From Candidatus Woesearchaeota archaeon (GTDB taxonomy: Archaea > Nanobdellota > Nanobdellia > Woesearchaeales > JAZDKJ01): DNA of 64,000 bases. A program made the position numbers and the translations under genes. Location of the stretch: the NCBI GenBank assembly GCA_043803105.1, contig JAZDKJ010000006.1, positions 96,001-160,000 of the forward strand. The letters run 5' to 3'. Positions 3,067 through 39,792 of this stretch are shown here, one piece after another (positions within the stretch are counted from its first letter, which is position 1; the number at the start of each line of letters is the position of its first letter). The notes under the pieces were generated by a model. That model ran no database searches. It saw nothing but the letters and a program-made list of their open reading frames with translations, and was not told the origin of the DNA.

Positions 3067-3627
3067 GTGGCTGCTAGCAAGCTCGAACAGAGGATAGTTG
3101 GGCTGTTTGTTGACGTCAAATCAGCCTTTAGTATTCTTCAGATTGCAAAGATGATGAACACATCCTATCCTCATGTATATAACGCTGTTCAAGGTTTGAT
3201 CGAGCAGGGCATACTCTCAAAGCTCGTTGTTGGCAATGTTCATCTTTGCCAATTGAACCTTGATAATGATCTTACCATAAGCCTGCTGTCGCTTCTCGCC
3301 TTACAAAAAAGAGAGCCGCTAATTCGCAAGCACAAATCTGTTCACCAGTTCCTCGCAAGCCTAAAGCACTCAAATCTGAGGTTTTCCGTTGACTTCTCAT
3401 TCTTCCTCAAGGGTGAATACTATCTTGTGGTGCACGATGCACATGAATGCAAATGGATACAGCAGTCCTTCGGCACAGCAAAGTGCTTGGACTTGGCTAG
3501 CGGCCTTGATCTCTTGGCATTGCATCACACAGAAGCTACTGTCCTACTGGGCTTCGAGCGCTATTATCAGGCCCTTTTCAGCATTTTCGACAGGCTTCAG
3601 GGACCGCTGGAGTTCAAACATGAATAA
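3067..3627 (+). CDS. Winged-helix transcriptional regulator with a C-terminal domain of unknown function
   Basis: The N-terminal FSILQIAKMMNTSYPHVYNAVQGLIEQGILSKLVVG has a wHTH pattern. The gene overlaps the start of the giant protein by 8 nt. Confidence 0.75.
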   Translation: MAASKLEQRIVGLFVDVKSAFSILQIAKMMNTSYPHVYNAVQGLIEQGILSKLVVGNVHLCQLNLDNDLTISLLSLLALQKREPLIRKHKSVHQFLASLKHSNLRFSVDFSFFLKGEYYLVVHDAHECKWIQQSFGTAKCLDLASGLDLLALHHTEATVLLGFERYYQALFSIFDRLQGPLEFKHE

Positions 3628-6600
3628 GGCAATTGTCTTCATTGGTTTGTTTGTAATCCTTGCCGCTCTCTCCTATAGCGAAGAATCCATTTTTACAGAC
3701 AAGTTCGAATATCAAGCTGGAGAAACCGTGAACATCTTTATAGGTGCAAACCTAAGCCCAGCGTTAGAGCTGGACATAATCTTTTCAGGCCAGCTCTTTA
3801 CTTTCAGTAGTACCAACAATTCTCGCTACGCATTTAAGCCCAGGACTGCCGGCGAATATTTTGTTACGCTCGTGAACCTGAGTTCCAACAGGTCTGTTGC
3901 AGTGATCTCATTTAAATTACTTGGTCAATCGCTAAGATGGGTTCGATGCACAGACCATGCGTCCTATAATATTGCTGACCGCGTCTTAATTGCTTTTAAT
4001 TCCTCAATAATAGATCTCAACCTTTCAGTTGGTGATAGAACTTATCAGTTTGCAGGAGACCTGGAAAAGCCTGTAATGTTTCGCCCTTTGTTTCCTGGGG
4101 CCTATTTGGTCCAGGCAACTGATCACACTGGTGAAAGTCTATTCTGCAATTTTTCAGTCTCTGGAAATCAGTCTGTGGTAGGGCCGCAAATTCTGAACAA
4201 TACACATTTTGTTTCCCCACCACGCTTCAAATTGCACGACTCAAGAAAGCATGAGCTTCTTGTACTCAACTATTCGATAAATTCTTCAGAGGCTGTTGTC
4301 TTGCCGCTAAACTCCTTTGCAAAGAAGATTGTTTTTCACGGGCTTCATAACAGCACGAACTTGTCCCTTGGTTTGGATGAGGTGTCTGGTTCCGTGCCCT
4401 CTCCATCAGGTGTTCGTTGGAAGCGCGTTTTTGCCATCGATCCTTCAAATCTAAATTTTACCTCCGCTCTCGTCACGCTCAGGGCACAAGGCAAGGCCCT
4501 ATACAAATGCAGAGAGTGGGACTTCTCTAGACAACAATGCCTAGGTTCATGGGAAAAGGTTAAGGACATAACCCCGGGCATTGACTACAACATTACTCTT
4601 GGTCCAGAAGATCCAGGCTATGCTGAGGCAGAAATCAATATCATAAACGTGCAGAGCTATCCTCAGGTTGGAGGCACATGGACTGTAATGTTCACCACTG
4701 TCGGTTCTGCTGACCTGGTTATTACGCCCATAAATGGAACCACATGGAATGGTCCTGGCCAAGACCTGATGTTTATGGAAATACGGTGTGGCGAATCTCC
4801 GCTTTCTTTTAGCTGGATAAACAACTCAGTTGTTGTCTCAAACTTTTCCTGCAATGATACAGCTTATGAGGTGAGTAAGGTTCTGACTTCAGGCAAGCAC
4901 CTGCTAGAATTTTCTTTTGGTGCCAGCAAGGCTTATGCTAGGAACGCTGCAGGAGATGGTTACCTGATCATGCTCTGGGATAAGGCAACCATTCCAACTA
5001 ACTGGACCTGCATATCCTGTACTTCCACCAGCCCGTTTTATCAGAGGTTGCCACGTGGCAACAGTACCTATGGTGCACCAAGCGGTTCTGCAACTCACAC
5101 CCATGCAGTCTCATTATTGTCTATAAGTTATGCCTCTTCCACTGTTTTTGGTGGCGAGACCAATACGGATGCCACTTCAACAACCCATACTCATGCAGTT
5201 GCATCCCAGACCTCCAGCTCTGCTTCGAGCCTGCCGAGATATCGCAACCTAAAGTTTATTATGTACAACTATAAGGTTCCTAAGACTCTGCCTGCAGGCA
5301 TTATCGGCCTTTTCAACTCTTCTCCACCTGCATTTTGGACTTTGTATTCCAAAGAGGATGGCTACTTTATTATGGGTGAGAACACTACCTCGACAGGAGG
5401 GGCAAACAGCCACAACCACACTGTCTCGTCATTCAGTCTTGACGCGACCGGCGACCTTGCAGGTAGGGTCTGGACAAACCAAGCGGGAGATGATGCTCGC
5501 GCAAATCACCAGCACACTGTAAGTCCTCCAACTTCTCAGAGTGCAAGCACTATGCCACCTTATATTCATGTTATCTTAGCCAATCTTTCAAAGGATTCTC
5601 CTTTGCCAATTGGTTTGATTGGTATGTTTAATGACACCCCATCAGCCTATTGGAGTCTGCTTTCAAGCTTAGGAGGAAAGTTTTCCGGCAAGTTTATTGT
5701 GGGAAATTCCACAGCGTACGGAAAAACCAGTTCTTCGCAATCGCATGCTCATGCAAATTACTTTTTTGCTTCTGGAGCAGCCACAACCAATAGGTTAAGC
5801 AGGTCAAGCGGCACTGTTGTTGCCAGTGATTCTCATACCCACAATGTGACCTTGAGTTTCACTAATGTTACAAATCTGCCGCCATACATCAATGTGATAT
5901 TTTCTTGGTCAAGGGCAGGTTGGGCCTATCCTAACGTGACGCAAATCACACCCGCTCCCGATTATGTGGATTCTGCCACCTCGCCAACAATACAGGTGAA
6001 TTTTACCTGCCGGATTACTGATGACTATGATGCCAAGAACCTTTCCTTGTATCTCACCAACAACAATAACCGGAGCATTAAGCTTAATGAAACATGTCTT
6101 ATCCCTTCTGTTAACGGTAGCTGCTCCTGGATAAAGGGCCTTCGCACAGGTAACTACACCTGGAACTGCGAGGGTTTTGATGAGACTGGTCTTGGCTCCT
6201 TCACCAAGAACAGGACGGTAAGGTTGCTCTGGGCAAACTCAAAGCCGCCCATAATCACAATTACAAGGCCTAAGAACAACACCTTTTCCAAGAATCCGGT
6301 AATCCTGAACCTCACCACTGACGAGGATGCTGTTTGCAGGTACTCAACAACAAGCACGTTTAGCTTTGCCGCAGGCACGCTCTTCTCAAAGACTGGAACA
6401 ACCATTCACGGCACAAACCTTGGAACCCTCTCAAACTCAACAACATATGTCTATTACGTGAAATGTAATGACACAGTCGGAAATGTGAATAATGTCTCAA
6501 ACCAGGCTGCTGTGCAGTTCACTGTGGACAACAAGCCGCCGAGGATTACCCTGAACATTCCTGTAAACGGTTATAACACTACTTCGGAGATAGTCAATTT

Positions 6601-9600
6601 TACCTGGACAACTTATGACGCGCTTGATACGAACATCACCTGCAACCTCACTCTCGACTCTGCTGTCATTTCTGCCTCAAAATACTCTCCAAACAACTCT
6701 AAGACTTCTATCGTCTCCTCTGTGACAGAGAAGATCCATCAATGGAATGTCTCTTGCTGGGATTCTGCAGGTAACCGAAATACAAGCAGCACAAGCATCT
6801 TCACAAGGCGCATTATCAAGGCAGTCCTTAGGGTGCAGACCAGGAACTACACTTACAAGCAGAACAAGGCAGTGAACCTTACCACACGGAAAGTCTATGA
6901 CTCAGGGGACTTGGAGCCATCCACTGTTTTGGTAACTTCATACAACAGGACAGGCACAGTTGAATACAATTTCACAAGTTATTCTGCCAAGGGCCACAGC
7001 GCTTTTTACAGCGATTCCGCAGGCAGCCAGCCTCCTGCTTCCGGTCCTTCAATAAACGGCGAGGCTGTGTTCACAGCAGCAGCTTACAACGCTTTGAATA
7101 AGTCCGATGATTCGCGCGCAGATTTTGGCAACGTGAACGATTTCAGGAGCCATAGGTTTCAATTTCGCATAAATGAAACCTCAGCCATAATGACAAAACT
7201 TGGCTTCTATTACGAGGGCTATGATGCAGGTGGCGATGTCTATCCGCTACAGTTCTTCCTCTGGGATTTTTCACAGCAGAGCTGGGTCTACCTTGGAGAG
7301 CATTTATCCTATACAACAGACGGTATAATCACCGCAACAAAGAGTTCCAGTCTTGCAAGCTATGTAAATTCGAGCCATTACCTGGACATCGCTGTCGTGA
7401 CAGGCAATCCTGGAAGCGCAAAGACTCTCTACACTGATTATGTTTACGTGAACGTTACCAAGCATGACGAGCTGGACGGTGACGCCTCTTCCGGTTTCAC
7501 CAACTACTCAAATGTTATTGCGGGTAACTTTACCAAGTTGCTTGATGCTTATGTGAGGCTCCAGGTTACTGCCTATAACGCATCTGGCTCAAAGAACGCC
7601 TCAAACACATACCCTGATATTGAGATACAGCTTTACGATGGTTCAAAGTTTGGATACTCATACCGCTGCAACCTCACCGGCAGCCTTGGTCTAAGCTCAA
7701 AGCAGCCAACAAACTGCTCAGTGCACGTTGTCAACTCGACTATTGTTACAGCTTGGACAAACTCTTCAAACAGGAGGGTCAGGGTCAGGGCTGTCAACCT
7801 TGACAGTACCACCAAGGCCAGCGACTTGATTAGCTGGAATGGTTTTTTTGTCAGGCTCGAATCTCCATCTGAGCTTCAGAACTACGGAGACCTGAACCTG
7901 ACCGGAAGGCTGATCATTCAAGTCAAGAATTCTACCGGCAGGGTGCTTGGCGTGCTTTATAACCAGTCTATTAAGGTGAGATACAACTCCAGCCTGAATT
8001 TTTCCGGTCTTCCCATATCTTGGAACACTGATTCTTATCCCTTGGGCATGTATAGGGTTTATGCAGGATTGTTCAACGCCTCCAATGGCATGATCCGAAA
8101 CTATGATGGCACCTTTGTCAACGACACCTCACCCTTTGTGATAGATTACCTGAGAATAACTGCGCAGTCCCCAACAAACAGGTCAGTGGTTGATGCAACT
8201 AGCTTTTGGGCAAACTTGACCTTAAGCTACCTGAGCTATAAGAGCGGCGGTTGGTGTGCCTATTCCATGGATAACAAGCCCAATGTTTCCATGCGCAACA
8301 ACTCGGCAACACATTTTTTTAATCGAACCTCAAATATCTCTGTCGGCCAGCACAGCATTCGCTTCTTCTGTAACGATACCCAGAAGGATATCTCCTCATC
8401 ACTGAAGATATATTTCAATGGCACTGACCAGACAGGCCCCCAGGTTCTCCTCACGTCGCCAGCAAATGAAGCCGAGGAGACTGACGGAAACGTTAGCTTC
8501 TTCTACAATGTAACAGACCTTGTGTCAGGGATTAAGAATTGCACCCTGGAATTCAATTTCGCCCCTGAAGCGACAAAGACCAGCATTCAGGAAGCCAAGA
8601 ATCTTAATTTTTCGATGGCAGAGATTCCAAACGGCGGTCCATATTACTGGCGCGTGTACTGCTATGACAATTCTCCCGCCAGAAACATCGGTTACTCATC
8701 ATATAGGAGTTTCATCATTGGAACTGATACAGATAAGCCAGTTGTCACCCTGAGCGACCCTGTGGACGGCTACAACACCTCCAATAATGACTTACCCCTC
8801 ATATACAGGGTGTATGACCCCACCACAGGAATCAAGAACTGCACCCTTGTGCTCAACAACAAGAAGAACGAAACAAGGACAAACATAATCCAGCAGGGCT
8901 TCCCATACAAATACAACAACTTTACTCTCCAGAACCTTGGTGACGGAAATTACACCTGGAGTGTGAACTGCACTGATACATCTTCTGCCCATAACCAGGG
9001 CAATTCCTCAACATGGCGTTTTACCGTGAACCGTGACACAGACTTTCCAATTGTTTACCTGGTCTTGCCAGCGGATAATTATACATCCAGTTCAGGCGCC
9101 ATGGACTTTTATTTTAATGTAACAGACTTTTCATCAGGAATTGCAAACTGCAGCCTGCTGATTAATGGGACAGTCAACTCAACTATCGACAATGTTACCG
9201 AAGGAATCCTGCAGCATTTGTATGTTCCGGGCTTTAAGGACGGAAGCTACGTTTGGCAGGTGAACTGCACTGACGATTCTTATGATACCAACACTAATAC
9301 CTCTGCGCACCTTCACTTCAATGTTGAGCGTCTCATGAATATGCGGCTCATTATGACAGCTTTCATGGCTGAGTACCAAAAAGGTAGCCAATTGAACGAG
9401 ACTGTGAACATTACTGCCCTTCTCTACGACCTTGTGGGTTACCCCCTAAGCGGCATGGTGGATTCTGATTTCATCAAGGCAAATACATCTGTCAAGTGGT
9501 GGAATTCTTCCTGGCAGCGCAGAAAGCCCATATACCTGAACAACTCTGTGCCATACAACAAGCCGAATTATCTCGTTGAAGTGAACATCACAGGCTTATC

Positions 9601-12600
9601 GAGCTTTATCCGTAACTGCACAAAGGAGATAAGGATTGTTGACATACATAATATAGAGGTGCCAAGCCAGGTTATTTCAGGCAATGACCTGACCTGGTGC
9701 TCAGTTGCTTTCAAGGCAAATGTTTCTGCCAGCGCAGTAAATGAGAACAGGTATTTTGCCTACCATAATTACACCTTGGCTACAAAGCCAAGCTACAAGA
9801 CCATTGCCCTGAAGGGTTGGCGAACCTACAACTTTTCCAATCGTGCCGTATTTGGCCACCATGCTTACAACAGCAACAATCCTTCGGATGGTGGCCCGCA
9901 GCCACCGAATATTGGGCCTGCCTTGAACAATGAAGTCGAATTTACCCCTCAGCAGTATTCAGACGTGCAGTTCTCTGACAATTCAAGGGCTACCTCAGGT
10001 ACTGTAAACACTGAGCGCAGCCATCGTTTTGTCTTCAACATCTCAGCCAATGCCTCAGACGCAGATTCCATAACCTTTGTCTGGGAGGGTTATACCACAG
10101 GCTCTGGCCCTAGCGTTGTTCTTTACCTTTGGAATTATTCCAGCTCTGCCTGGGTTCAATTTGGCACTCATAGCATTACCTCTGATAGGAACCTTTCCAA
10201 CTCTCTTAACGGCACTTCCCTTTCTTCTTTCGTGCATAACAATCTTTTGCATATTGCTGCAGTCTCTGATGACCCCTCAAATGCTCAGACCTTGTACACT
10301 GATTTTGTGCAGGCAAAAGTGCTAACAAATACAGTCACGAACAACTCCAAGGTCGGTTCAACTGAAGTATTTGTCGCAAGGCTTGCGAACAGCACAGGTT
10401 CAGATGGCATCCTCAAGATGAACCTCAGCACTGATTTCATGGAACTAGGATTCTTCAGCGTTGTCGGCTTGGCATCAACCTCAAGCTATTTCAACACCAC
10501 AAACCACACGCATTACACGGTTGCGATTGACCACACCAGCCCCCAGGTGTTGCTGAAAAAGCCGATAGACCTTAATATTAGCTACGTAAGCGACATCTCT
10601 CTTTTCTTCAATGTCACAGACCTGCTTTCAGGGATAAAGAACTGCTCTCTTATACTGAACAACAAGGTTAACCTGACCAACACCACAGTCTCTGAAGGCT
10701 CAACAATTGGATTCTCGCTCTATAATCTTGCAAACGGTGATTATAATTGGACTGTCAATTGCACTGATGATTCATCGCTGCAGAACCGAGGTACTGCTGC
10801 AAAGCGCAAGTTCACAATCGCAAAGGATACGGTTGCTCCAATTGCTAGTCTCAAGAATCCAAGCCCTGGTTGGACTGATGCAAACGGCAACATTACGCTT
10901 TTCTTCAATGTTACAGACAACCTGATGCCGACTGCTGATTGTACGCTGTATTTCAACAGCTCAAGAAACGAGACCAAGCAGGGCCTGCAGACCGGTGCGC
11001 ACACGCATAACTTCACCCTGACCGGTTTGAATAACGGCTTTTATTCATGGTTTGTTAACTGTTCCGATACATCATCCCAGCGAAATTATGCCTCTTCCCA
11101 AACCTGGAACTTCTCGGTGACTATTGACTTTGCCACTCCACTCATTAAACTCAGGTTTCCCCACAATGCGACCCAGCTGACAAACGAGAACATAACCTTT
11201 GCTTACAATGTGACTGACGCCCTCTTTAACGTCTCCAACTGCTCGCTTTACCTTAATGGAGAGCTGGACCAGACCAATATTACCATTAAGGAGCTTGCAA
11301 ATAACACCTTCCGTTACTTTTACATGGCTGGCCCATACAACTGGTCTGTCTATTGCATTGACAGTTCAGAGAATGCCAATGCTGTGATGTCTGACATTTG
11401 GGAGTTTCTTGTAGCGCCAGACAACGATGGCCCTCTGGTGAATCCTGTTTTCCCACCTGACAGTATTGAGCTTAGCGAGGGGAACATAACATTCTATTAC
11501 AATGTCTCTGATTTTGCCTCAGATGTTGAGAACTGCAGCCTGTTCATAAATCAAACAGGGATGGCATTCTCTTCAAACATTGCTGAGGGCATAAAGCAGA
11601 ACCTCAGCGTTGTCCTGCAGAACGGCAGCTATTATTGGATTGTTAACTGCACTGACAATTCGGAGAATCACAATACTGGCGCGTCGGCCGCAAGAAAGCT
11701 CACCATCGGCCTTGACCGCACCGGCCCTACTGTAACCTTGTTAAGCCCTGTTCCTCCTTACAATGACACTGATGGCAACGTGCTCTTGCAGTATAGCGTT
11801 ATCGACTATGCCTCAGGGGTAAGGAATTGCAGTCTTTTCATCAACGACAAGGTGAATGCCACCAACTCAACAATAGCTGAATCTGAGAATCTCCATTTCA
11901 GGCTAAGCACGCTCTCAAACGGCTTCTATACATGGCATATGAACTGCACCGACACATCCTCTCTCGCGAACACCGGAAAATCGCTGAAGTGGAATTTTAC
12001 CGTGACCCTGGACAACGAAGGCCCAGCCGTCAACCTTGTCTTGCCTGATGATTATGCTACAGACACTGACGGCAATAGGATTTTCTACTACTCTGTGGAT
12101 GATGTTATATCAGGCATAGTCAATTGCAGTTTAGTCATCAACAATAAACTAAACCTAACCAACAGTTCCCGCATAATCGAAAATGCTTTGTCGAACTTCA
12201 CCATCACTGGCCTCGGTACTGGCCAGTACAATTGGTCTGTGAACTGTACAGACAATTCTGACAATCATAATCGCAAAGGTGCACAGACTCGCCATCTGAC
12301 AGTTGTGGTTGATGCGACAGCACCGGTTGTTGAACTCATTTCGCCTTCAGACCTCACTGCTGACAATGACGGCAATCGCACCTTCTACTTCAATGTGACT
12401 GACTCTTTGACCAATGTCTCTTCCTGCACGCTGCATGTTGGTCCGTATACTTATATCAACACCTCACTGCTCCAAGGGCTAACCCAATCATTCAAGCTCT
12501 CCGCAATGTCTAACGGTGTCTATCGCTGGAACATTTCTTGTGTTGACAGCTCAGAAAACCAAAATAACGGGATTTCAGGGTCGCGTACCTTGACTGTCAG

Positions 12601-15600
12601 GATTGACCTAAGCCCTCCTTTAGTCACATTGAAGCTTCCCTTGAATTATACCCAGAGCTTTAGCAATGATGTTGTCTTCACCTTCAATGTTACCGATGTT
12701 TCGCCCCTAAAGAATTGTAGCCTGATAGCAAACAGTACCATATTGGCCTCAAACTCGACAATTGCGCGCAATGTCACGCAGGATTTTGCTCTCACAGTTC
12801 CAAGCGGCTCTTACCTCTGGAGCATAAACTGCACTGATTCCTCAGAGCACTTTCTCAAGTCCAGCTCAGAGAAGCGCGTCCTTGTTGTCGGCCCTGATGT
12901 GATAGGCCCGACTGTCCGGCTTACAAACCCCCCTAATAATGCTCAGGACACGGACGGAAACGTAATCTTTGAGTTCAATGCCTCAGACTTTGCCTCGGCG
13001 TTGAAGAATTGCAGTCTTATATTGAACGGTCACCTCAACAGGACTAAGGACAATCCCCCTGAGAACACCTACCTGAACTTCACTGTCTACAATCTTGGTA
13101 ACGGGAATTATACCTGGCAGGTAAACTGCACTGATGATTCATCGAATTTCAACACTGCAGCCTCGGAACAACGCCTTTTGGTGGTGGGTGTAGACCAGTC
13201 TCCCCCTGCCATTACTCTCTACTCGCCGGCAAATCTCTCAATCTACAACAGCAAGGACGTGGTTTTTGCCTTTATGGTTTATGACTACTCATCATCTGTG
13301 CCGAACTGCAGTCTCATCTTGAACAGCAGGTTTAACCAGTCAAAGAAGCCAGTTGTTGAGCAAGCCCCTCAGTATTTCTACTTGCAAGACCTTGCAGACG
13401 GCTTTTACAACTGGAGTGTGAACTGCACTGATAACATGTCAAACGTGGGAGCATCATCCACCTGGAAGGTAACAGTTTTCAGGCCGCGCCAACTGATTGC
13501 AGATGTATATGCAAGTGCTCCATCTTATGAGCTTGGCCTGACAGCTATTATTGTTGCAAATGTGACCAACTCCTCAAAAGGTAGTATGAACGCAACTGTC
13601 TTCTCTGATATTATCAGGGGCAATGCCACATCGCCGTGGTGGAGTTCCAGTTGGAAGCATAGGCTGCCTGTAGACATAAATTCCACAAACCTGACCCGCA
13701 AGGATTCGCTTGTCGAGCTGGCAGTCAATTTTACCAAGCTTCTGAAGACGGATATTGGCAACCTCACGGTCAGGTTTGATGCAAATTCAGTCAGGGTGGT
13801 GGAGTGGGCTTCCAACCAGTCAAAGGAGACAGTCTCCCAGTTTGACCAAGGTCCTTCCTTCAACAAGTCAAGAAATGCTATCGGCACAGTTCGCTGGATT
13901 ATGAATGGTACAACCCAGCAGAATACAATTAGAAAGTTCTATGTCTATTTTGACGTAGAGGAGAACGGCGCCAAATCACAGCCAAACTATGCAAAGCCCT
14001 CCTTCACATTCAAAGGCTCAGGCAAGAGTGTCCTTTATGACGGTGCCTCCCAATCAGCTGACCGCTTGACTATAAGGAAGTCTAACAGCTCGTTTACCCT
14101 GCAGTTCGGTAGCGGCCAGTCAAATACAAATCAGCAGAATGTGCACTTTCAGGGCGCCGGAAGCATCTGGAATATTACAGTCAACCGGACGCGGCTGACC
14201 AATTATTTTGACAGCATTGTCCCGATCTCCATTTACAACAGCTACTTCATCAATGCCAACTCATCGTCGGTTGTGCATTCGGGTGCTGTTCTTTCTGCTG
14301 TCAACATTCCAGGCTATATCAACGCAAGCCCTGGCTCTAAGGTGAACTTGAATTATTCTGTGTGGTTTACGAACGACGAAATCCGGCTTCGCGCCAATCT
14401 TGTTGCACAATTCAGCCAGGCAAACAACAACCCTGCAAGCTACTTCAACAACCTCTGGTTTGCCTACATGTTTGATTATTTGTCAAGCTGGAACTCGTTT
14501 GTGCATAGGCTGAACTCTTCAACCTATGGCCAGACCCACAACTATCACTCTCCAACAACGATGCAAGATACCACAAACCAGTTCAATGCCGGCCGCTGGT
14601 ATTCAGAGTATTGGGCTACAGTAGGCTCCCTCAACTTGTATGCAGAAAAATTCCTGCTTAATGGTGCCGCCAACACCGTTGGAGTAGTCACTTATGATGA
14701 TTATTACAATCCTGCCCAGGGAAAGCTGACTGAGTCTGACGCAGCAGGTTTTAACTACAACCAGGACAAGGCGATAGCTGCTCTTGACAAATACAACCTG
14801 ACTGTCTGGCTCGTGTTTTCCAGGAACGGTAGTTATCGTCGCGGCAGTGTATTAAGGTCAGAGCTCACCACTCCGCTCTTGATTCGACAGAGAAATCCTG
14901 AGACTCTGATGAAAAGACAGTCAGGCGTCACAGGCAGCCAGGGCTTTATTTCCTATCAGTGGGCAACCTCTGGCAATAGCCTGGGGTGGTATGCTGCAAC
15001 TATGCTTGCTAACAAGTCATTGTATTATAATGGGGCTGATTACTTCCCTTTCCAGATAACCCAGGACATAACAAAGCCGAATGTAACACTGATTAGTCCT
15101 TCGGGTTGGATCAATTATTCCTCAGTTCTCTTTACTTATAATGTCTCTGAGTCAAATCCGCTTGTTCCGAATTGTTCTCTAATCATTAACGGCAAGCTCA
15201 ATAAGACTAACAAGACAATTACCAACAATGCAAGGAATTATTTCAGGTTGTCCAACTTGGGAAATGCAGACTATAACTGGACCGTGAACTGTACTGATTA
15301 TGCAGGCAATGTTGCATCTGCTCTAACCAAAAAGATAATGATTGACACTGTAAGACCTCCCCTTAACATCTCATTCCCGCCCCAGTCAGCCCTGCTTTCA
15401 AGCACAAAAGTGGATTTCAACTTTACTGTGACTGACAATCGGGCCACCAACCTTACCTGCGAGCTGTTTGTTAATTCTGCCTTGAGGAAGACTGTTGTTG
15501 CTTTTAACAATACAAGAACAAACATGACAACCAATCTCTCTGACGGGACCTACACTTGGTATGTCCGTTGTACTGATTGGGCATCAAATCGGAACACCAG

Positions 15601-18241
15601 TTCTGTAAGGTCGCTCTCGGTTGATACTGGCCCGCCAACCATTCAGCTGATAAGCCCTGCGCCCGGCTCTTATGATAATGATGGCAACTTTGTGCTTGTG
15701 TATAAGCCATACGACACAGGCGGTCTTAAAAATTGTAGTCTAATAATAAACAACAGGTTGAATCGGACAAATCAATCTGCTTTGAAAAACAACCTGAACA
15801 ACAATTTTACGATTTCTGGATTTGGCCAAGCTGCTTACAACTGGAGTATTAACTGTACAGATATTTTTGGACGGGTTGCCAATTCTTCTACCAGAACACT
15901 TTATCTGGATCTGTTCAAGCCTTCAATTTCTCTTCTCAAGCCATTGCCAGGCTCAATCTTTAACATTAGCACTGTGAAATTCAACTTTACTGTGTATGAC
16001 TCATTTGACTGGAACCTAGTCTGCAACCTTACTGTTGATTCTGCCGTCCGCTCTCCAAATATTGCAGTCTCTAATGGTACCATCGGCTCCAGCTCTGTTT
16101 CCGGCCTCGTTGATGCTGTCCATTATTGGAATGTTTCATGTTGGGACCATGCCTCTAACAAGAACACCTCGCGTACGCAGAACTTTACAGTAAGGCAGCC
16201 ACCAATAGTGCGTCAATTGCTTCCGTCAAACAACTCATGGTCCCAAAATCACAACGTCACCTTTTATTTCAACGCAACTGACAATGATGGTATAGAGAAT
16301 TGCTCGCTCTTCTTCGACAACAAGTTGAATCTAACCAAGACGGTAATTGTGAACCGTGTAAAAAGCAACATCACCCTGGTTGATGCCCCACAAGGCCTGC
16401 ATAACTGGAGCATCAGGTGTTTTGACAACAGTTCTCTTTTCAACAACGCTTCAACCCCTGTATGGCTTGTCAAAATTGATTACACTTTGCCTAATGTTTC
16501 TCTCATCTCTCCAGCCACAGGCACTTGGAACCATTCAAGCACAGTCTCGTTTTCCTATTCCTTTGTTGAGGCTAACAAGGATGTTTGCCAATTGTATGCT
16601 AACTTCAGCGGCTCTTGGAAAGGCAATGCTTCAAACAGGACAATGATTTCCGGCCAGGCAAACAAACTCACAACAACCGTGCGTGACGGAAGCTATAAAT
16701 GGAATGTTAGATGCAATGACTCTGCTGCAAACATTGCATTTGCAGGTTCTAACTGGACCATAAGAATAGATGCCACTCCACCCTCGATAAGATTAAAGGC
16801 ACCCGCAATGAATTATTGGGACAATAATGGCCTCGTTGTCTTTAATTTCTCGTTCACAGAAAAGTATCCTGACAAGTGCCAACTGTGGGCCAACTTCTCA
16901 AGCACTTGGAAAATGAATCAGACCATAAACAGTCCTCTGCCAAATGTTGATAACTTGTTTGATCAGCTAAATCTCCCCGAAGGTGCCTATAAGTGGAATG
17001 TTTGGTGCAATGATTCTGCAGGAAACTTTGCGTGGAACTCAACCAACCAGACACTCTTTGTTGACAAGTTTTCGCCTCACCTCTTGCTCATCTCCCCACT
17101 CAATGGCTCGAACGCCTCTGCCGAAGTTTACTTTAATTTCACAGTTTCCGATAATGTGGACTCCAACCTGACCTGCAACCTCACTCTTGATAACAAGGTC
17201 AATAGGAGCAGGCTTAATGCCTTAAGCGGCTCAGTCACCTCTGTTCTGGTTGAGGGTCTTAAGATGGGATATCACAATTGGAGCGTTTTGTGCTGGGACA
17301 ATGCCCTTCATTACAACCAGTCTGCAACACTTTGGTTCAACGTGAGCTTAAGTGATTTGATTGCGCTCTACACCAATTTGCATTTTAGCGACAACACTCC
17401 CGAGGAAGGTGTCAATATTACTGTCAACGCGACTATCCTGAATGACGGTGGTACAGATGCATTCAATATTACTGTAAGGTTCCTTGAGCGGAAGCCTTCT
17501 GGCGCTTTCTCCCAAATAGATGGATTGAAAATAGTAAATATTAGCGTTGGTGCCAATGCCACATTAGCCGTTCCCTGGACACCTAAGATTGGTTTGTATT
17601 ACATTCGTGTTGCGGTCGATCCTGCGAACAAGATAAAAGAGATCAGTGAGTCCAATAATAATGCTACTGCCAACATCACAACCTCGCTCTGGCATACAGT
17701 TAGGGGTAATGCTACCGGCGCCCTTTCAGTAAGTGATACTACCAATAGCTCAATTTACAGTTGGTCTGTATTGAACTCGTCAAGAAGCAATGTCTATGTT
17801 GCAGATTCTGATTCATTGATTTTATGGACCAGGCTTGAACCCCTTACAAGGAACCTTTCACATCACCTTAGGGTTGTTGATATTGAATATCTTGATCGCG
17901 GCTTGGGCTCTGCAAACCTTACCGATTCGCTCAACCGGACCTTTGTCTCTCAAGGTTCAATTCTCGCCACAAGGAATATATCTGTCTACAACAGGCTCCT
18001 GTTGTATGTCCCTGTTGCGAATAGTACCAACAGCTCCGAGTTTGTGACAGGCATTCTATGGGATGCCTCTGACCTGGATCTTGGTTTCTACAACGGGACC
18101 CAGGATGTTGTTTTTGTCACCCAGGTTCGCGCCCCGACCAATTCATATGGTTTTGGTTACGAATTGAGGATTCCTGCTTATCTGAGAAGCTACAAGACAA
18201 ACACTTTAGGGACTGTGACCTTTTACACAGAGCTAAAATGA
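3620..18241 (+). CDS. Giant secreted surface protein 1 (~4873 aa): Ig-like repeats, triple tail-collar/HxH module, DUF2341-like and lectin-like inserts, CARDB domain, conserved C-terminal domain
   Basis: The true start is ATG 3620 (MNKAIVFIGLFVILAALSYS signal peptide), not 3389. It has dozens of ~100-aa repeats with NCxL...YxWxVxCxD, two WW-x2-SW-x2-R DUF2341-like starts and a CARDB-like VDPANKIKEISESNN. N-x-S/T sequons are very dense and there is no C-terminal TM. Confidence 0.92.
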   Translation: MNKAIVFIGLFVILAALSYSEESIFTDKFEYQAGETVNIFIGANLSPALELDIIFSGQLFTFSSTNNSRYAFKPRTAGEYFVTLVNLSSNRSVAVISFKLLGQSLRWVRCTDHASYNIADRVLIAFNSSIIDLNLSVGDRTYQFAGDLEKPVMFRPLFPGAYLVQATDHTGESLFCNFSVSGNQSVVGPQILNNTHFVSPPRFKLHDSRKHELLVLNYSINSSEAVVLPLNSFAKKIVFHGLHNSTNLSLGLDEVSGSVPSPSGVRWKRVFAIDPSNLNFTSALVTLRAQGKALYKCREWDFSRQQCLGSWEKVKDITPGIDYNITLGPEDPGYAEAEINIINVQSYPQVGGTWTVMFTTVGSADLVITPINGTTWNGPGQDLMFMEIRCGESPLSFSWINNSVVVSNFSCNDTAYEVSKVLTSGKHLLEFSFGASKAYARNAAGDGYLIMLWDKATIPTNWTCISCTSTSPFYQRLPRGNSTYGAPSGSATHTHAVSLLSISYASSTVFGGETNTDATSTTHTHAVASQTSSSASSLPRYRNLKFIMYNYKVPKTLPAGIIGLFNSSPPAFWTLYSKEDGYFIMGENTTSTGGANSHNHTVSSFSLDATGDLAGRVWTNQAGDDARANHQHTVSPPTSQSASTMPPYIHVILANLSKDSPLPIGLIGMFNDTPSAYWSLLSSLGGKFSGKFIVGNSTAYGKTSSSQSHAHANYFFASGAATTNRLSRSSGTVVASDSHTHNVTLSFTNVTNLPPYINVIFSWSRAGWAYPNVTQITPAPDYVDSATSPTIQVNFTCRITDDYDAKNLSLYLTNNNNRSIKLNETCLIPSVNGSCSWIKGLRTGNYTWNCEGFDETGLGSFTKNRTVRLLWANSKPPIITITRPKNNTFSKNPVILNLTTDEDAVCRYSTTSTFSFAAGTLFSKTGTTIHGTNLGTLSNSTTYVYYVKCNDTVGNVNNVSNQAAVQFTVDNKPPRITLNIPVNGYNTTSEIVNFTWTTYDALDTNITCNLTLDSAVISASKYSPNNSKTSIVSSVTEKIHQWNVSCWDSAGNRNTSSTSIFTRRIIKAVLRVQTRNYTYKQNKAVNLTTRKVYDSGDLEPSTVLVTSYNRTGTVEYNFTSYSAKGHSAFYSDSAGSQPPASGPSINGEAVFTAAAYNALNKSDDSRADFGNVNDFRSHRFQFRINETSAIMTKLGFYYEGYDAGGDVYPLQFFLWDFSQQSWVYLGEHLSYTTDGIITATKSSSLASYVNSSHYLDIAVVTGNPGSAKTLYTDYVYVNVTKHDELDGDASSGFTNYSNVIAGNFTKLLDAYVRLQVTAYNASGSKNASNTYPDIEIQLYDGSKFGYSYRCNLTGSLGLSSKQPTNCSVHVVNSTIVTAWTNSSNRRVRVRAVNLDSTTKASDLISWNGFFVRLESPSELQNYGDLNLTGRLIIQVKNSTGRVLGVLYNQSIKVRYNSSLNFSGLPISWNTDSYPLGMYRVYAGLFNASNGMIRNYDGTFVNDTSPFVIDYLRITAQSPTNRSVVDATSFWANLTLSYLSYKSGGWCAYSMDNKPNVSMRNNSATHFFNRTSNISVGQHSIRFFCNDTQKDISSSLKIYFNGTDQTGPQVLLTSPANEAEETDGNVSFFYNVTDLVSGIKNCTLEFNFAPEATKTSIQEAKNLNFSMAEIPNGGPYYWRVYCYDNSPARNIGYSSYRSFIIGTDTDKPVVTLSDPVDGYNTSNNDLPLIYRVYDPTTGIKNCTLVLNNKKNETRTNIIQQGFPYKYNNFTLQNLGDGNYTWSVNCTDTSSAHNQGNSSTWRFTVNRDTDFPIVYLVLPADNYTSSSGAMDFYFNVTDFSSGIANCSLLINGTVNSTIDNVTEGILQHLYVPGFKDGSYVWQVNCTDDSYDTNTNTSAHLHFNVERLMNMRLIMTAFMAEYQKGSQLNETVNITALLYDLVGYPLSGMVDSDFIKANTSVKWWNSSWQRRKPIYLNNSVPYNKPNYLVEVNITGLSSFIRNCTKEIRIVDIHNIEVPSQVISGNDLTWCSVAFKANVSASAVNENRYFAYHNYTLATKPSYKTIALKGWRTYNFSNRAVFGHHAYNSNNPSDGGPQPPNIGPALNNEVEFTPQQYSDVQFSDNSRATSGTVNTERSHRFVFNISANASDADSITFVWEGYTTGSGPSVVLYLWNYSSSAWVQFGTHSITSDRNLSNSLNGTSLSSFVHNNLLHIAAVSDDPSNAQTLYTDFVQAKVLTNTVTNNSKVGSTEVFVARLANSTGSDGILKMNLSTDFMELGFFSVVGLASTSSYFNTTNHTHYTVAIDHTSPQVLLKKPIDLNISYVSDISLFFNVTDLLSGIKNCSLILNNKVNLTNTTVSEGSTIGFSLYNLANGDYNWTVNCTDDSSLQNRGTAAKRKFTIAKDTVAPIASLKNPSPGWTDANGNITLFFNVTDNLMPTADCTLYFNSSRNETKQGLQTGAHTHNFTLTGLNNGFYSWFVNCSDTSSQRNYASSQTWNFSVTIDFATPLIKLRFPHNATQLTNENITFAYNVTDALFNVSNCSLYLNGELDQTNITIKELANNTFRYFYMAGPYNWSVYCIDSSENANAVMSDIWEFLVAPDNDGPLVNPVFPPDSIELSEGNITFYYNVSDFASDVENCSLFINQTGMAFSSNIAEGIKQNLSVVLQNGSYYWIVNCTDNSENHNTGASAARKLTIGLDRTGPTVTLLSPVPPYNDTDGNVLLQYSVIDYASGVRNCSLFINDKVNATNSTIAESENLHFRLSTLSNGFYTWHMNCTDTSSLANTGKSLKWNFTVTLDNEGPAVNLVLPDDYATDTDGNRIFYYSVDDVISGIVNCSLVINNKLNLTNSSRIIENALSNFTITGLGTGQYNWSVNCTDNSDNHNRKGAQTRHLTVVVDATAPVVELISPSDLTADNDGNRTFYFNVTDSLTNVSSCTLHVGPYTYINTSLLQGLTQSFKLSAMSNGVYRWNISCVDSSENQNNGISGSRTLTVRIDLSPPLVTLKLPLNYTQSFSNDVVFTFNVTDVSPLKNCSLIANSTILASNSTIARNVTQDFALTVPSGSYLWSINCTDSSEHFLKSSSEKRVLVVGPDVIGPTVRLTNPPNNAQDTDGNVIFEFNASDFASALKNCSLILNGHLNRTKDNPPENTYLNFTVYNLGNGNYTWQVNCTDDSSNFNTAASEQRLLVVGVDQSPPAITLYSPANLSIYNSKDVVFAFMVYDYSSSVPNCSLILNSRFNQSKKPVVEQAPQYFYLQDLADGFYNWSVNCTDNMSNVGASSTWKVTVFRPRQLIADVYASAPSYELGLTAIIVANVTNSSKGSMNATVFSDIIRGNATSPWWSSSWKHRLPVDINSTNLTRKDSLVELAVNFTKLLKTDIGNLTVRFDANSVRVVEWASNQSKETVSQFDQGPSFNKSRNAIGTVRWIMNGTTQQNTIRKFYVYFDVEENGAKSQPNYAKPSFTFKGSGKSVLYDGASQSADRLTIRKSNSSFTLQFGSGQSNTNQQNVHFQGAGSIWNITVNRTRLTNYFDSIVPISIYNSYFINANSSSVVHSGAVLSAVNIPGYINASPGSKVNLNYSVWFTNDEIRLRANLVAQFSQANNNPASYFNNLWFAYMFDYLSSWNSFVHRLNSSTYGQTHNYHSPTTMQDTTNQFNAGRWYSEYWATVGSLNLYAEKFLLNGAANTVGVVTYDDYYNPAQGKLTESDAAGFNYNQDKAIAALDKYNLTVWLVFSRNGSYRRGSVLRSELTTPLLIRQRNPETLMKRQSGVTGSQGFISYQWATSGNSLGWYAATMLANKSLYYNGADYFPFQITQDITKPNVTLISPSGWINYSSVLFTYNVSESNPLVPNCSLIINGKLNKTNKTITNNARNYFRLSNLGNADYNWTVNCTDYAGNVASALTKKIMIDTVRPPLNISFPPQSALLSSTKVDFNFTVTDNRATNLTCELFVNSALRKTVVAFNNTRTNMTTNLSDGTYTWYVRCTDWASNRNTSSVRSLSVDTGPPTIQLISPAPGSYDNDGNFVLVYKPYDTGGLKNCSLIINNRLNRTNQSALKNNLNNNFTISGFGQAAYNWSINCTDIFGRVANSSTRTLYLDLFKPSISLLKPLPGSIFNISTVKFNFTVYDSFDWNLVCNLTVDSAVRSPNIAVSNGTIGSSSVSGLVDAVHYWNVSCWDHASNKNTSRTQNFTVRQPPIVRQLLPSNNSWSQNHNVTFYFNATDNDGIENCSLFFDNKLNLTKTVIVNRVKSNITLVDAPQGLHNWSIRCFDNSSLFNNASTPVWLVKIDYTLPNVSLISPATGTWNHSSTVSFSYSFVEANKDVCQLYANFSGSWKGNASNRTMISGQANKLTTTVRDGSYKWNVRCNDSAANIAFAGSNWTIRIDATPPSIRLKAPAMNYWDNNGLVVFNFSFTEKYPDKCQLWANFSSTWKMNQTINSPLPNVDNLFDQLNLPEGAYKWNVWCNDSAGNFAWNSTNQTLFVDKFSPHLLLISPLNGSNASAEVYFNFTVSDNVDSNLTCNLTLDNKVNRSRLNALSGSVTSVLVEGLKMGYHNWSVLCWDNALHYNQSATLWFNVSLSDLIALYTNLHFSDNTPEEGVNITVNATILNDGGTDAFNITVRFLERKPSGAFSQIDGLKIVNISVGANATLAVPWTPKIGLYYIRVAVDPANKIKEISESNNNATANITTSLWHTVRGNATGALSVSDTTNSSIYSWSVLNSSRSNVYVADSDSLILWTRLEPLTRNLSHHLRVVDIEYLDRGLGSANLTDSLNRTFVSQGSILATRNISVYNRLLLYVPVANSTNSSEFVTGILWDASDLDLGFYNGTQDVVFVTQVRAPTNSYGFGYELRIPAYLRSYKTNTLGTVTFYTELK
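4955..5910 (+). repeat. Three tandem phage tail-collar-like repeats, each with two HxH motifs, within giant protein 1
   Basis: Each unit follows (P)xGxIxx[WF]...PxxW...[FL]xxG...HxH...HxH...[LM]P[PR]Y. The HxH pairs are HTH/HTH, HNH/HQH and HAH/HTH. Confidence 0.75.
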
Positions 18242-20394
18242 GAAGGTTTTTGATATGGGTGTTGTCATTTCTTGTTCTTATCCAGTTGGTCGCCTCGCCC
18301 CCGCCCCTTCCTCACAGTGTCTCAGGCACGATCTACAACTCAGATGGCATCAACCAGGTTTCGCTCGGAACAAAATATATTCTTAATGACACAACCATTA
18401 ATTCATTTGTTCTCGGCGAGACCAATGTTCCGATTCCTGGCATGTCAGGCATGTATTTTGAGACAATTGATGGTTCCGAATCAGATAGCCTAGCTATTTT
18501 GGCATGGAACTCTACTTACTACGGAAAAATGACTTACATCCTTGTTGGTGATATGGAGAATGTTGACGTTTCTTTGGGCACTTTACGGCCGCCCGAGGTA
18601 AAGGTTGTAATAGTGTCTCCTCTCAACAACACCAATGTGGAGATTAATGCCTCTTTCAACCTTACCGCTAACATCACCTCAATTGGCGGCTCATCAAGCA
18701 TCGGCTGCAATGTGACAATCAATTTCAGCAATCCATTCACAGTGCGCTTGAAGAATTCTGATGCTAGGCATTCGCTTGGCAACCTGCCACTAGCAAGCTC
18801 TGTCTTGACTAACTGGGAGCTTGTTGGTTCAAAGGGCTGGTCTGTGAATCTTACGGTGGCTGCAAAATGCTCTTCTGACTCCCAGAACTTTGACAATCTC
18901 AACCATTATACCGTCTATAATCTTGTTGTGAATGATGATGATCCCCCCATCATTCAGCTATTTGAGCCTTCAAACAATTCTTGGGCCAGGTCCTCACCTA
19001 CAGTATTTGTCTATCAGGTTAGTGACCTTAGTGGAATCGTGAACTGCAGTTTGTTCCTTGATGGAAAACTTAATAAGACAAACTTTTCTGTCTCCGATTC
19101 GATCAAGCAGAATTTCTCTATCCGCCCAACACAAGCCAATCACACCTGGAAGGTTTCCTGTGCAGATAATAGCAGCTGGCATAATCTCGGAACTAGCCTG
19201 ACCTGGTTCATGAGGGTTGATACTGTCGCTCCCAATATCACCTTGGTCGCTCCACCTAATGACACTGCTCGTGCCAACAATACTGTTGCCTTTGTGTATA
19301 ATGTGACAGACTCAAACCAGGTACTGAATTGTTCACTCGTGATAAACAGCTCTTTTTTTTCCTCTTCGTCATCAATCACTAAGGCAGTAAATTCTACAAT
19401 CACCTATACCCTCCGGCACGGCATGTATTTCTGGAGCATTAACTGCACTGATGCCGCAGGCAACATTGGCCATTCATTAAGCAGGGAACTTAACATTACA
19501 GACCCTGACCTTGAAGTTTCCAGTTTGCTGCTGAGTAATCCCAAGCCTGTTGAAGATGAGCTCGTGATTATTAACGCCAGTATCAGCAACATTGGTGATG
19601 AGAACGCTACTGGTATTGTCGTGAAGTTTCTTGAAGGAGACCCTGGTGTGGAATTCTCGAACTCAACAATAAACATTTCAAGGGGTAAAGTTGCTTATGT
19701 TGCTGCAAGCTGGCACGCCAAAGTGGGCCAGAACACGATTTTTGTGCTGGTCGATCCGCCAATTGAGACTAACGGATCAATCATGGAGATCCGAGAGGAC
19801 AATAACCTGGCAAATATTACAGTCTATGTGCCGATGTGGCAAATCTTCTACGGAAGCCTTTATGGTCAGCTCTTATTAGACACTACAGGTGATAGTTCAC
19901 TCGTAAGATGGTCCAATATAACTGACTTTTTTGGCAATGTTTATGTTGCAGATTCTGACTCCAGGGTTTCCTGGTCTTCTCTTTCTGCCTTGAGCCTCAA
20001 TCTGTCCTTTCAAGCGAACCTGTCAGACTTTCAGGTGCTGGATAATGCCTTGAACACCTCTGCATTCAATGATTCAATCAATCGCTCTTTTCTGGGCCGC
20101 CAAGGCTCGCCGGACAGGCGCACCTTTACAGTTTTTGACCTAAACATCACAGGGGTTCCTGTCATCAACAGCACCAATACCTCTAATTTTGTTACAGGCA
20201 TTCTTTGGGACTCGAGCGATTTGGCAATAGGGCATTACAACGGCACCCAGGACATAGTCTTTGTTGGAAACGTTCAGCACGCGCAGGGTTCTCATGGCAT
20301 TTATGATTATGAGGTTCGGATTCCTGCCTACCTGCGTTCTCTGGTGAATCCAAACAACCTTAACACTCTCACTTTTTATGTGGAGATTACCTGA
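18238..20394 (+). CDS. Secreted Ig-repeat/CARDB protein sharing the C-terminal domain of giant protein 1
   Basis: Signal peptide, N-terminal PPPLPH domain, Ig repeats and a CARDB domain. The C-terminal VYVADSDS...FVTGILWD...YNGTQD...RIPAYLRS...TFYxE is paralogous to that of giant 1. ATGA overlap. Confidence 0.9.
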   Translation: MRRFLIWVLSFLVLIQLVASPPPLPHSVSGTIYNSDGINQVSLGTKYILNDTTINSFVLGETNVPIPGMSGMYFETIDGSESDSLAILAWNSTYYGKMTYILVGDMENVDVSLGTLRPPEVKVVIVSPLNNTNVEINASFNLTANITSIGGSSSIGCNVTINFSNPFTVRLKNSDARHSLGNLPLASSVLTNWELVGSKGWSVNLTVAAKCSSDSQNFDNLNHYTVYNLVVNDDDPPIIQLFEPSNNSWARSSPTVFVYQVSDLSGIVNCSLFLDGKLNKTNFSVSDSIKQNFSIRPTQANHTWKVSCADNSSWHNLGTSLTWFMRVDTVAPNITLVAPPNDTARANNTVAFVYNVTDSNQVLNCSLVINSSFFSSSSSITKAVNSTITYTLRHGMYFWSINCTDAAGNIGHSLSRELNITDPDLEVSSLLLSNPKPVEDELVIINASISNIGDENATGIVVKFLEGDPGVEFSNSTINISRGKVAYVAASWHAKVGQNTIFVLVDPPIETNGSIMEIREDNNLANITVYVPMWQIFYGSLYGQLLLDTTGDSSLVRWSNITDFFGNVYVADSDSRVSWSSLSALSLNLSFQANLSDFQVLDNALNTSAFNDSINRSFLGRQGSPDRRTFTVFDLNITGVPVINSTNTSNFVTGILWDSSDLAIGHYNGTQDIVFVGNVQHAQGSHGIYDYEVRIPAYLRSLVNPNNLNTLTFYVEIT

Positions 20395-20447: not shown

Positions 20448-21209
20448 ATGACAAATTCTGAACCTGAAAGGATTAGGGTGGGAGTGCCTGGGTTTGATGA
20501 CCTGATTGAAAAAGGCCTGCCTAAAGGCATCAATATACTGATTTCTGGTGGGCCTGGGACAGGCAAGACCACTTTTTGTCTTCAGGCGCTTGCCTATGGT
20601 GCGAAAAATGGCGAGAAATGTTTGTACATGTCATTTGAAGAAAGCAGGGAAAGGTTGTTGCAGCACATGCGAGACTATGGGTTTGACCCAGACAGCCTGC
20701 TAGAAAAAAATCTTCTTATGATAAAGTGCATTGACCCATTCCAGATTTCGCGTTCGGTTGAGGCCTTGCTGGCAAGCGCACGAGGAGAATTGCTGATTGA
20801 TATTAATGAGGTTGCACCGATGCTGCCTGTCGATTTTAAGCCTGACAGGATAATCTTTGATTCTTTATCTGCTGTTGCAGCTGCCTTCGCAGAAAAAGAG
20901 GAAGGCTTTAGGGTTTATATAGAACAGTTATTTCGGGAGTTGGGAAAAGTTGGAGCCACGTCATTTCTTATTTCTGAGGTGGAACAGGGGCTGACCAGAT
21001 ACAGCAAAAGCGGTGTTGAAGAGTTTCTGGCTGATGCAGTGATCGCTTTCTATAACCTGCGGAGGGAAAATCTGAGGCTAAATGCTCTTGAGATCATCAA
21101 GATTCGTGGTGCTGCCCACCAGAAAAAGGTCGTTCCTTTTAGCATGTTGTCTGGGAAAGGAATCGAGGTTTATCCTTTGGAGAACATTTTCACAACAGAC
21201 AAAGACTAG
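20448..21209 (+). CDS. KaiC-like (RecA-superfamily) single-domain signal-transduction ATPase
   Basis: GVPGFDDLI start, Walker A GGPGTGKT, SFEE, Walker B IIFDSL, EEFLADAVI, IIKIRG. Confidence 0.93.
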   Translation: MTNSEPERIRVGVPGFDDLIEKGLPKGINILISGGPGTGKTTFCLQALAYGAKNGEKCLYMSFEESRERLLQHMRDYGFDPDSLLEKNLLMIKCIDPFQISRSVEALLASARGELLIDINEVAPMLPVDFKPDRIIFDSLSAVAAAFAEKEEGFRVYIEQLFRELGKVGATSFLISEVEQGLTRYSKSGVEEFLADAVIAFYNLRRENLRLNALEIIKIRGAAHQKKVVPFSMLSGKGIEVYPLENIFTTDKD

Positions 21210-39779: not shown

Positions 39780-39792
39780 CCCTATCCCTCCT

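Follow-up and report, generated by a model that had tools for sequence, protein, structure and literature searches.

A three-unit HxH module in a giant archaeal surface protein as a probable single-chain counterpart of trimeric tail-fiber tips

Results

Structure of the locus

The DNA analyzed in the present study (hereafter, the window) is a stretch of 64,000 nucleotides from a Candidatus Woesearchaeota archaeon (assembly GCA_043803105.1, contig JAZDKJ010000006.1, positions 96,001 to 160,000). It carries a gene for a giant surface protein, and our subject is a 318-residue module of that protein, composed of three units that each bear two His-x-His (HxH) motifs. The open reading frame (ORF) at 3389-18241 on the plus strand encodes 4950 amino acids and is open from a TTG codon at 3389. 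The ATG at 3620 is likely to be the true start because it opens the only strongly hydrophobic stretch of the protein, which is either a signal peptide or an N-terminal anchor. Counted from this ATG, the protein has approximately 4870 residues and the module begins approximately 445 residues in. The protein contains 282 N-x-S/T sequons (5.7 per 100 residues), and outside the triple segment Pfam recognized only immunoglobulin (Ig)-like and CARDB domains. The beta-rich domain of approximately 110 residues that lies directly upstream of the module (Table 1) also immediately precedes it in four homologues (P0021, P0013, P0003, and P0036).

The module extends over 4955-5910 in frame 1 and corresponds to residues 523-840 of the ORF, with no stop codon in its 318 residues. 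It is composed of three tandem units of approximately 105 residues each, and the pairwise identity between units is 21-32%. The units share one plan: a P-x-G-x-I-x-x-F/W...P-x-x-W start that resembles a phage tail collar, an F-x-x-G...G-G turn, two HxH motifs with a variable stretch between them, and a closing L/M-P-P/R-Y-x-x-V/L-x-F/I strand. The HxH motifs are located at segment residues 48, 78, 153, 185, 264, and 294, and they represent six of the nine such motifs in the whole 4950-residue protein. A preliminary description of this DNA, prepared from the sequence alone, had reported three collar-like units of this kind, with two HxH motifs and a closing strand each, near the N-terminus of a protein of approximately 4900 residues. 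Translation and unit alignment recovered the three units as described, in a protein that otherwise consists mostly of Ig-like domains. The stretches between the two HxH motifs of each unit combine low conservation within the family with low confidence in the structural model, and are candidate distal binding loops.

Table 1. Positions in the window of the giant surface protein gene, its parts, and neighboring genes
Feature	Position	Strand	Composition	Basis
Gene for giant surface protein	3620-18241	+		ORF, hydrophobic start, sequons
N-terminal hydrophobic segment	3620-3688	+	MNKAIVFIGLFVILAAL... (MNKAIVF...)	Sole strongly hydrophobic stretch
Beta-rich domain directly upstream of the module	4625-4954	+	~110 residues	Homologue comparison
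Unit 1	4955-5266	+	Collar-like start; HTH 5096-5104; HTH 5186-5194; closing LPRYRNLKFI	
Unit 1, variable inter-HxH loop	5105-5185	+		Family conservation, model confidence
Unit 2	5276-5593	+	PAGIIGLF...FW start; HNH 5411-5419; HQH 5507-5515; closing MPPYIHVILA	
Unit 2, variable inter-HxH loop	5420-5506	+		Family conservation, model confidence
Unit 3	5600-5908	+	PIGLIGMF...YW start; HAH 5744-5752; HTH 5834-5842; closing LPPYINVIFS	
Unit 3, variable inter-HxH loop	5753-5833	+		Family conservation, model confidence
Long stalk	5911-16768	+	Ig-like repeats (Big_13, Big_3_3, Big_7, related)	Pfam
C-terminal part	16769-18238	+	~490 residues, including CARDB (residues 4656-4760)	Pfam, paralogy with next ORF
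Partial paralogue of the giant protein	18238-20394	+	718 residues; overlaps the stop of the giant gene	
Two KaiC-like ATPase genes, a DUF7504 gene, and a V4R-domain gene	20448-21209, 27456-27965, 28401-29099, 29102-29740	+		
Sensor/transport cluster	34488-41202	-	dCache-HAMP histidine kinase, NMT1-like and ATP-binding cassette (ABC) substrate-binding proteins, dCache-HAMP protein, double-PAS protein	
Second giant ORF	42674-58717	+	5347 residues; signal-like N-terminus; many Ig-like repeats	
ORF after the second giant gene	61727-63541			

Conservation and distribution

A search with the 318-residue module against 1.84 billion cluster representatives returned 610 matches at E<=1e-3, 425 at E<=1e-10, and 182 at E<=1e-30, and nearly all of the best 150 of the 610 aligned query residues ~2-317 in one stretch. 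Since 610 representatives match and the HxH sites are conserved, the triple segment is beyond chance. Units were counted in 158 homologues, a set that rests on the best 150 of the 610 matches. With a profile of the whole module, 134 homologues had one full in-register triple, 17 had two full triples, and 7 had partial matches only. With a profile of a single unit, three units were found in 134 homologues, six in 20, and two in 4, while no protein among the 158 had four or five units. The four two-unit homologues look like fragments, the unit array touching the protein end in all four.

Each of the six HxH sites is retained in 144-167 of 169 aligned modules. Losses are mostly single, with 28 in the first motif of unit 1 and 21 in the first motif of unit 3, and a joint loss of equivalent motifs across units was not a pattern in the 169 modules. 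The sequences that flank the module are common to just 4-9 of the 158 homologues, and, therefore, the module moves between proteins as a unit.

In the archaeon's own genome (1.56 Mb, 13 contigs, 96.5% complete), the module occurs once; among 301 sampled genomes of the same phylum, it was found in 2, own genome included. Single-protein scans of contigs from species-representative genomes and of viral contigs did not reveal a relative. Pattern scans of genomes and of IMG/VR were performed with a 7-row alignment instead of the 39-row alignment, which was too diverse, and ten loci from species-representative genomes carried the module. The archaeal genomes are recorded as Methanocellales, Micrarchaeota, Bilamarchaeaceae, Aenigmatarchaeota, and an uncultured archaeon, and the bacterial genomes as Parcubacteria, Patescibacteria, Kerfeldbacteria, an actinobacterium, and a Geobacter. 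Three units were present in nine of the ten cellular loci, and the tenth (L012) is cut by the start of its contig; L002 likewise has three units. The order of the units is conserved across archaea, bacteria, and viruses.

The module is not covered by any precomputed Pfam family, and no source gives it a name. In Pfam, it matched DUF6143 only, at 17 bits and below the cut-off of 27; in PHROGs, it matched phrog_13924 only (E 0.026); and NCBIfam returned nothing for it. A tblastn search of 50,697 phage records produced three non-significant matches (E 7-9), the top one being Pas29 of the Actinoplanes phage phiAsp2. ESM Atlas provided leads only, at a recognition value under the usual mark: a viral cluster (0.96), a cluster with 11% Collar (0.94), and Gp10_C (0.93). 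Gp10_C appeared in none of the Pfam scans of the window protein, the viral ORFs, and 39 family members.

Predicted fold

AlphaFold2, run on the triple with the 39-row alignment, predicted a single body with a mean predicted local distance difference test score (pLDDT) of 89.1 and a predicted template modeling score (pTM) of 0.84; 220 of the 318 residues reached pLDDT >=90. The model is all-beta, without helices, and units 1 and 2 show a similar nine-strand pattern. The HxH motifs lie in or beside predicted strands, and confidence dips in the three inter-HxH stretches. Unit 2 alone was predicted at pLDDT 71.1 and pTM 0.42, with only three short collar strands and no regular structure in the HxH-bearing middle. 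The modeling agrees with interdependent folding of the units because the pTM of the triple is high and the lone unit did not fold. Furthermore, since VIA alignments of approximately 100 residues span model residues 44-309, the central sandwich of the model draws strands from all three units.

In a Foldseek search of predicted viral structures (BFVD), the triple model matched phiAsp2 Pas29 and Pas28 at E ~5e-14, with TM-scores over the query (TMq) of 0.63 and 0.65, respectively. The next matches were an uncharacterized Caudovirales protein (8e-3), a "tail collar domain containing protein" (0.026), and an Aeromonas phage tail fiber (0.12). The wide VIA comparison returned C2 domains (Z 3-5) and PAAR (Z 3.6) from solved structures; these are generic beta-sandwich matches, and we did not accept them as kin.

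Relationship to fiber tips

A unit profile built from cellular and viral units (66 rows) matched four solved sequences in the PDB: 9qgo (8.3e-7), the T4 gp37 tip 2xgf (1.9e-5), 6ov6 (4.1e-4), and 7z47_I (8.1e-4). Each of these entries contains three chains of the matched sequence. A profile of the whole module matched 2xgf alone (E 2.7), and phmmer with the window module found no PDB sequence at E<=10.

Viral units provide a further connection. The three units of the viral locus L051 matched the hidden Markov model (HMM) of the cellular unit at 2.6e-17, 4.7e-17, and 2.8e-18, and the single-unit ORFs of L060 gave values of 5e-21 to 1e-16 with the same profile. The two ORFs of L051 also pass the Pfam Collar model, scoring 28.5 and 25.8 bits where the cut-off is 24, over profile positions 1-22 only. 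Among ten scanned viral ORFs, Collar matched five, two of them above the cut-off, and the other five gave no match. At the sequence level, the window module is linked to Collar only transitively, through these viral intermediates.

Viral relatives

The IMG/VR scan yielded 49 viral loci, in which units were counted per ORF at loose thresholds; these counts are not independent because L018/L019, L043/L044/L046, and L048/L049 are near-duplicates. One ORF with three units was the arrangement at 24 loci. At L039, a single ORF of 2034 residues (L039:5947-12048) carries nine units, that is, three triples in one chain, and L037 has two ORFs with three units each. Two units followed by one on the next ORF were found at five loci (L051:4986-6222, L023:5941-7283, L030:5944-7238, L044:2167-3484, and L046:5638-6937). 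Three adjacent one-unit ORFs were found at three loci, namely, L054 (5178-7152) and L060 (4768-6399), where a tape-measure gene lies upstream of them, and, by HMM count, L059. The remaining loci had other counts. A stricter count gave fewer clean threes, with 18 loci at three units and more at two. When the ambiguous viral ORFs were re-examined by HxH clusters, 19 of 22 had exactly three; the exceptions were a 5'-cut ORF, an ORF without clusters, and a 405-residue ORF of L045 with one cluster, which is probably an ordinary homotrimeric fiber. The viral unit genes adjoin tape-measure, baseplate-wedge, neck, and virion structural genes.

The split genes are not frameshift artefacts: every small ORF carries a start and a copy of the N-terminal motif of its own, and both the 2+1 and the 1+1+1 arrangement are found repeatedly in loci that have diverged.

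Prediction of the complex between the two-unit and one-unit chains of L051 scored 0.38, against 0.00 for the best of three controls, on a scale whose calibration holds roughly here because custom alignments were used and Zn was included. Of 80 solved complexes, 58 reached the mark, as did 2 of 110 mismatched pairs; at scores <=0.60, those passing were 7 of the 80 solved complexes and both of the passing mismatches. The runs agreed in at least 88% of contacts, with a partner pLDDT of at least 68. This modeling weakly supports pairing of the two-unit chain with the one-unit chain.

A quick tree of 66 units (121 columns), which is supported by the Shimodaira-Hasegawa-like approximate likelihood ratio test (SH-aLRT) only and has many open forks, grouped the cellular units by their position in the module: eight first units clustered together (support 92), as did nine third units (87). 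The same grouping by position is seen for the units of the viral triples L014, L015, and L022. The three units of L051 cluster together (99), and those of L060 likewise (90). Position labels required 15 changes on the tree, versus a mean of 31.5 after shuffling, and none of 200 shuffles was as low.

Neighboring genes

The 718-residue ORF that overlaps the stop of the giant gene encodes a partial paralogue of the giant protein. Its residues 233-717 resemble residues 4461-4949 of the giant protein (35% identity over 501 residues, E 1e-68), and its N-terminal 338 residues resemble the N-terminus of the ORF that comes after the second giant gene (31% identity, E 1e-49). From these sequence similarities, a small secreted partner of the same family seems to follow each giant gene. 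The second giant ORF shares many Ig-like repeats with the first (25-46% identity). The triple HxH module is absent from it, the search of the own genome having found a single copy.

The two KaiC-like ATPase genes, the DUF7504 gene, and the V4R-domain gene lie between or beside the surface-protein genes and could be part of a conserved secretion or assembly cluster. A gene of the HVO_A0114-type helix-turn-helix family is also among the neighbors in the window, and these neighboring genes are consistent with an archaeal genome. The sensor/transport cluster on the minus strand appears to be unrelated to the triple module.

Discussion

We concluded that residues 523-840 of the giant protein probably form a single-chain pseudo-trimer of a gp37-type tail-fiber tip. 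The computed support consists of block conservation, the one-body fold, the interdependence of the units, and the kinship with fiber tips. An intramolecular trimer had been proposed in the preliminary description, and it is supported by conservation in blocks of multiples of three, by the AlphaFold2 model of one body, and by the failure of the lone unit to fold; the structure prediction that it had recommended thus indicated units that do not fold independently. Its claim of a relationship to phage and extracellular contractile injection system (eCIS) fiber tips is also supported. The matches of the mixed profile, the Collar-bearing viral units, and Pas28/Pas29 speak for this kinship, whereas a direct match to Collar was not obtained. 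The outcome was divided for its suggested Foldseek comparison with tail-fiber structures, which succeeded with the predicted structures of phiAsp2 Pas28 and Pas29 but not with the PDB.

In the arrangement that we propose, each unit of approximately 105 residues takes the place of a single chain in the trimeric fiber tip of a phage or an eCIS. The path of a unit would begin with a proximal pair of collar strands, continue outward along the first HxH strand to the variable distal loop, return along the second HxH strand, and end in the closing LPPY strand. The three hairpin-like units would pack around a putative pseudo-threefold axis and form one beta-rich knob. Judging by the analogous fibers of T4 gp37, SU10, and JUB59, two six-histidine sites for Fe2+ or Zn2+ may staple the knob, one created by the first HxH motif of each unit and the other by the second. 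The distal loops differ because the three units have diverged, and they would present an asymmetric binding face. Fusion into one chain would make a fold of three chains insertable into a monomeric, bead-on-a-string, N-glycosylated surface protein. In this setting, we infer that the module most likely acts as an adhesion or recognition head for the surface of another cell.

Several results weigh against this interpretation. The unit profile built from cellular sequences only had 7z47_I as its best match in the PDB, at E 0.041, and the gp12 entries followed at 0.5-3. The Pfam Collar model (PF07484) gave no match at E<=1 for the window protein and none at E<=0.01 in the 39 family members, and a Collar search of the own genome found no match in the window and 11.6 bits on another contig. 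Among solved structures, Foldseek with the triple model returned no PDB match at E<=1e-3, and the wide VIA comparison gave only generic beta-sandwich matches, the best being C2 domains at Z 5.1. The lack of a convincing solved match would be expected for a comparison between a single chain and an individual protomer from an intertwined trimer, but it leaves the link in fold dependent on sequence profiles and predicted viral structures. The excess of threes among the 158 homologues is biased by the triple query and by the use of the best 150 of 610 matches. All six HxH motifs are kept in just 84 of the 169 modules, although the window copy keeps all six, and the losses are mostly single; a complete six-histidine first layer is, therefore, not universally required. 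Moreover, the lone-unit control was run on a different alignment, of 34 rows of cellular units, that mixes the three unit types.

The same evidence bears on other ways of arranging three units. They may be stacked layers of a homotrimeric fiber, in which three giant proteins, or their N-terminal parts, would associate and pair unit by unit. HxH layers do repeat along each chain of the homotrimers in solved fibers, as seen in the alignment with gp37 (2xgf), and Pas28 and Pas29 of phiAsp2 have several HxH motifs per unit. Stacking would permit any number of layers, yet complete homologues have three or six units and the viral loci have 3, 9, 2+1, or 1+1+1. The monomer model is compact and confident, with its pTM of 0.84, the units are positionally orthologous and diverged, and the rest of the protein is a series of Ig-like beads, which do not usually trimerize. 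We consider stacked layers unlikely.

It is very unlikely that the units are three independent collar-like lectin or adhesin beads whose histidines form a small metal or ligand site in each bead and share no axis. Tandem small beta domains are the rule elsewhere in the giant protein, and identities of just 21-32% between the units would suit such beads. However, a lone unit is not predicted to fold past its collar strands, the pTM of the triple indicates one fixed arrangement, and the number of units is fixed at three in an order that is conserved over archaea, bacteria, and viruses. HxH motifs also occur in metallohydrolases, and this shared motif is what might favor a metal-dependent enzyme, such as an HxH-type hydrolase or oxidase, over a binding head. 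An enzyme is nevertheless highly improbable: the model is all-beta without helices, the histidines lie in strands and not in the pocket-forming pattern of any matched enzyme, Pfam, NCBIfam, and PHROGs returned no enzyme family, and the only significant sequence relatives are fiber tips and receptor-binding proteins. Based on the family searches, the lone-unit control, and the pTM, we rejected both the independent beads and the enzyme.

The proposed pseudo-trimer differs from each of the known systems to which it may be compared. The tip of T4 gp37 (2XGF), residues 28-148 of which are the stretch matched by the mixed profile, resembles the units in its collar-like start (YPIGAPIPW...P.GF), its G-rich turn, its HxH motifs in strands, and the metal stapling that we propose for the module. 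For T4 gp12 (1OCY and 1PDI), only the collar part aligns, and not significantly. Both T4 proteins assemble as homotrimers from three identical chains, with a true threefold symmetry, and HxH layers are numerous in gp37, whereas the window module has three diverged units in one chain with two HxH motifs each and is located in a cellular surface protein. The best solved match, 9qgo ("Tail fiber protein"), has a similar start (LPKGMIVMFSG...P.GW), an HxH motif, and a C-terminal PPYYLLAFIM that corresponds to the LPPY..V.F of the unit. Unlike the module, it has one unit per chain in three chains and is located at the C-terminal tip of a fiber of a contractile injection particle. A preprint on the Photorhabdus PlPVC1 eCIS cites 9QGO and describes the fiber as a trimer of Pvc13, from which we infer that 9QGO is Pvc13. 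The short fiber of SU10 (7Z47 chain I) and the receptor-binding protein of phage JUB59 (6OV6) are also matched by the mixed profile but are homotrimeric phage proteins; in PMC9509320, 6OV6 is given as the JUB59 protein, and the SU10 fiber is described as having two pairs of histidines that may bind Fe2+, similar to T4 and JUB59.

In the virophage DSLV2, three gp37-like tail proteins are encoded by consecutive genes; each combines a collar with a receptor-binding domain, and the three co-purify as a 1:1:1 heterotrimer (PMC12724248). As described there, three diverged units form one trimer, and the three-gene layout resembles that of the viral loci L054 and L060; the DSLV2 units are on three chains, whereas those of the window are fused in one gene for a cellular giant protein. 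On this account, the DSLV2 heterotrimer is a precedent for the 1+1+1 viral form. Pas28 and Pas29, the best fold matches among predicted viral structures, have exactly three HxH clusters in one chain. They differ from the module in that they are phage tail proteins with units of approximately 140 residues, four HxH motifs per unit, and a sequence identity of 17-20%. Pas29 is annotated as a possible receptor-recognizing protein with HXHY motifs and is located after tail genes. The PAAR spike tip (for instance, Pvc10, 6P22), a single-chain pseudo-threefold beta structure that sits on a threefold axis, is an analogy only: its VIA match has a root-mean-square deviation of 3.9 over 106 residues at the Z value given above, which is within noise, and no sequence relation was found. 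The unit is of a known kind, and a heterotrimeric form has been published. In the openly searchable literature, with subscription journals and supplements outside this scope, neither a single-chain fusion of the units nor the use of such a fusion in giant surface proteins of cells was found to be described.

The unit tree is suggestive of the order of events. Its topology, which is based on sequence comparison, suggests that the fused cellular module arose by one old triplication and then spread, and that other lineages reached three units independently. Gene conversion within a locus could mimic independent origins in L051 and L060. A possible but tentative scenario is that the fiber-tip trimer was linearized repeatedly, with four forms present in nature: a homotrimer from one gene, a heterotrimer from three tandem genes, a 2+1 form from two genes, and a single chain. 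The fully fused asymmetric form, freed from the need to trimerize, may then have been spliced into monomeric giant adhesins and have spread in ultra-small archaea (DPANN) and bacteria (candidate phyla radiation, CPR) that depend on hosts, and in a few other lineages, as a host-recognition head with three different binding loops.

Trimeric fiber tips are what tailed phages, tailocins, and contractile injection systems normally use to bind their receptors. If the single-chain version is confirmed, it would show how an obligate trimer may turn into a portable monomeric domain. It would also provide a natural, single-gene, asymmetric scaffold for the engineering of receptor-binding proteins, in which the three distal loops are independently variable. 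The present study describes a large family (610 cluster representatives) that was without coverage in our Pfam, NCBIfam, and PHROGs searches, and the module is a candidate for the part by which giant surface proteins of tiny symbiotic archaea and bacteria recognize their hosts.

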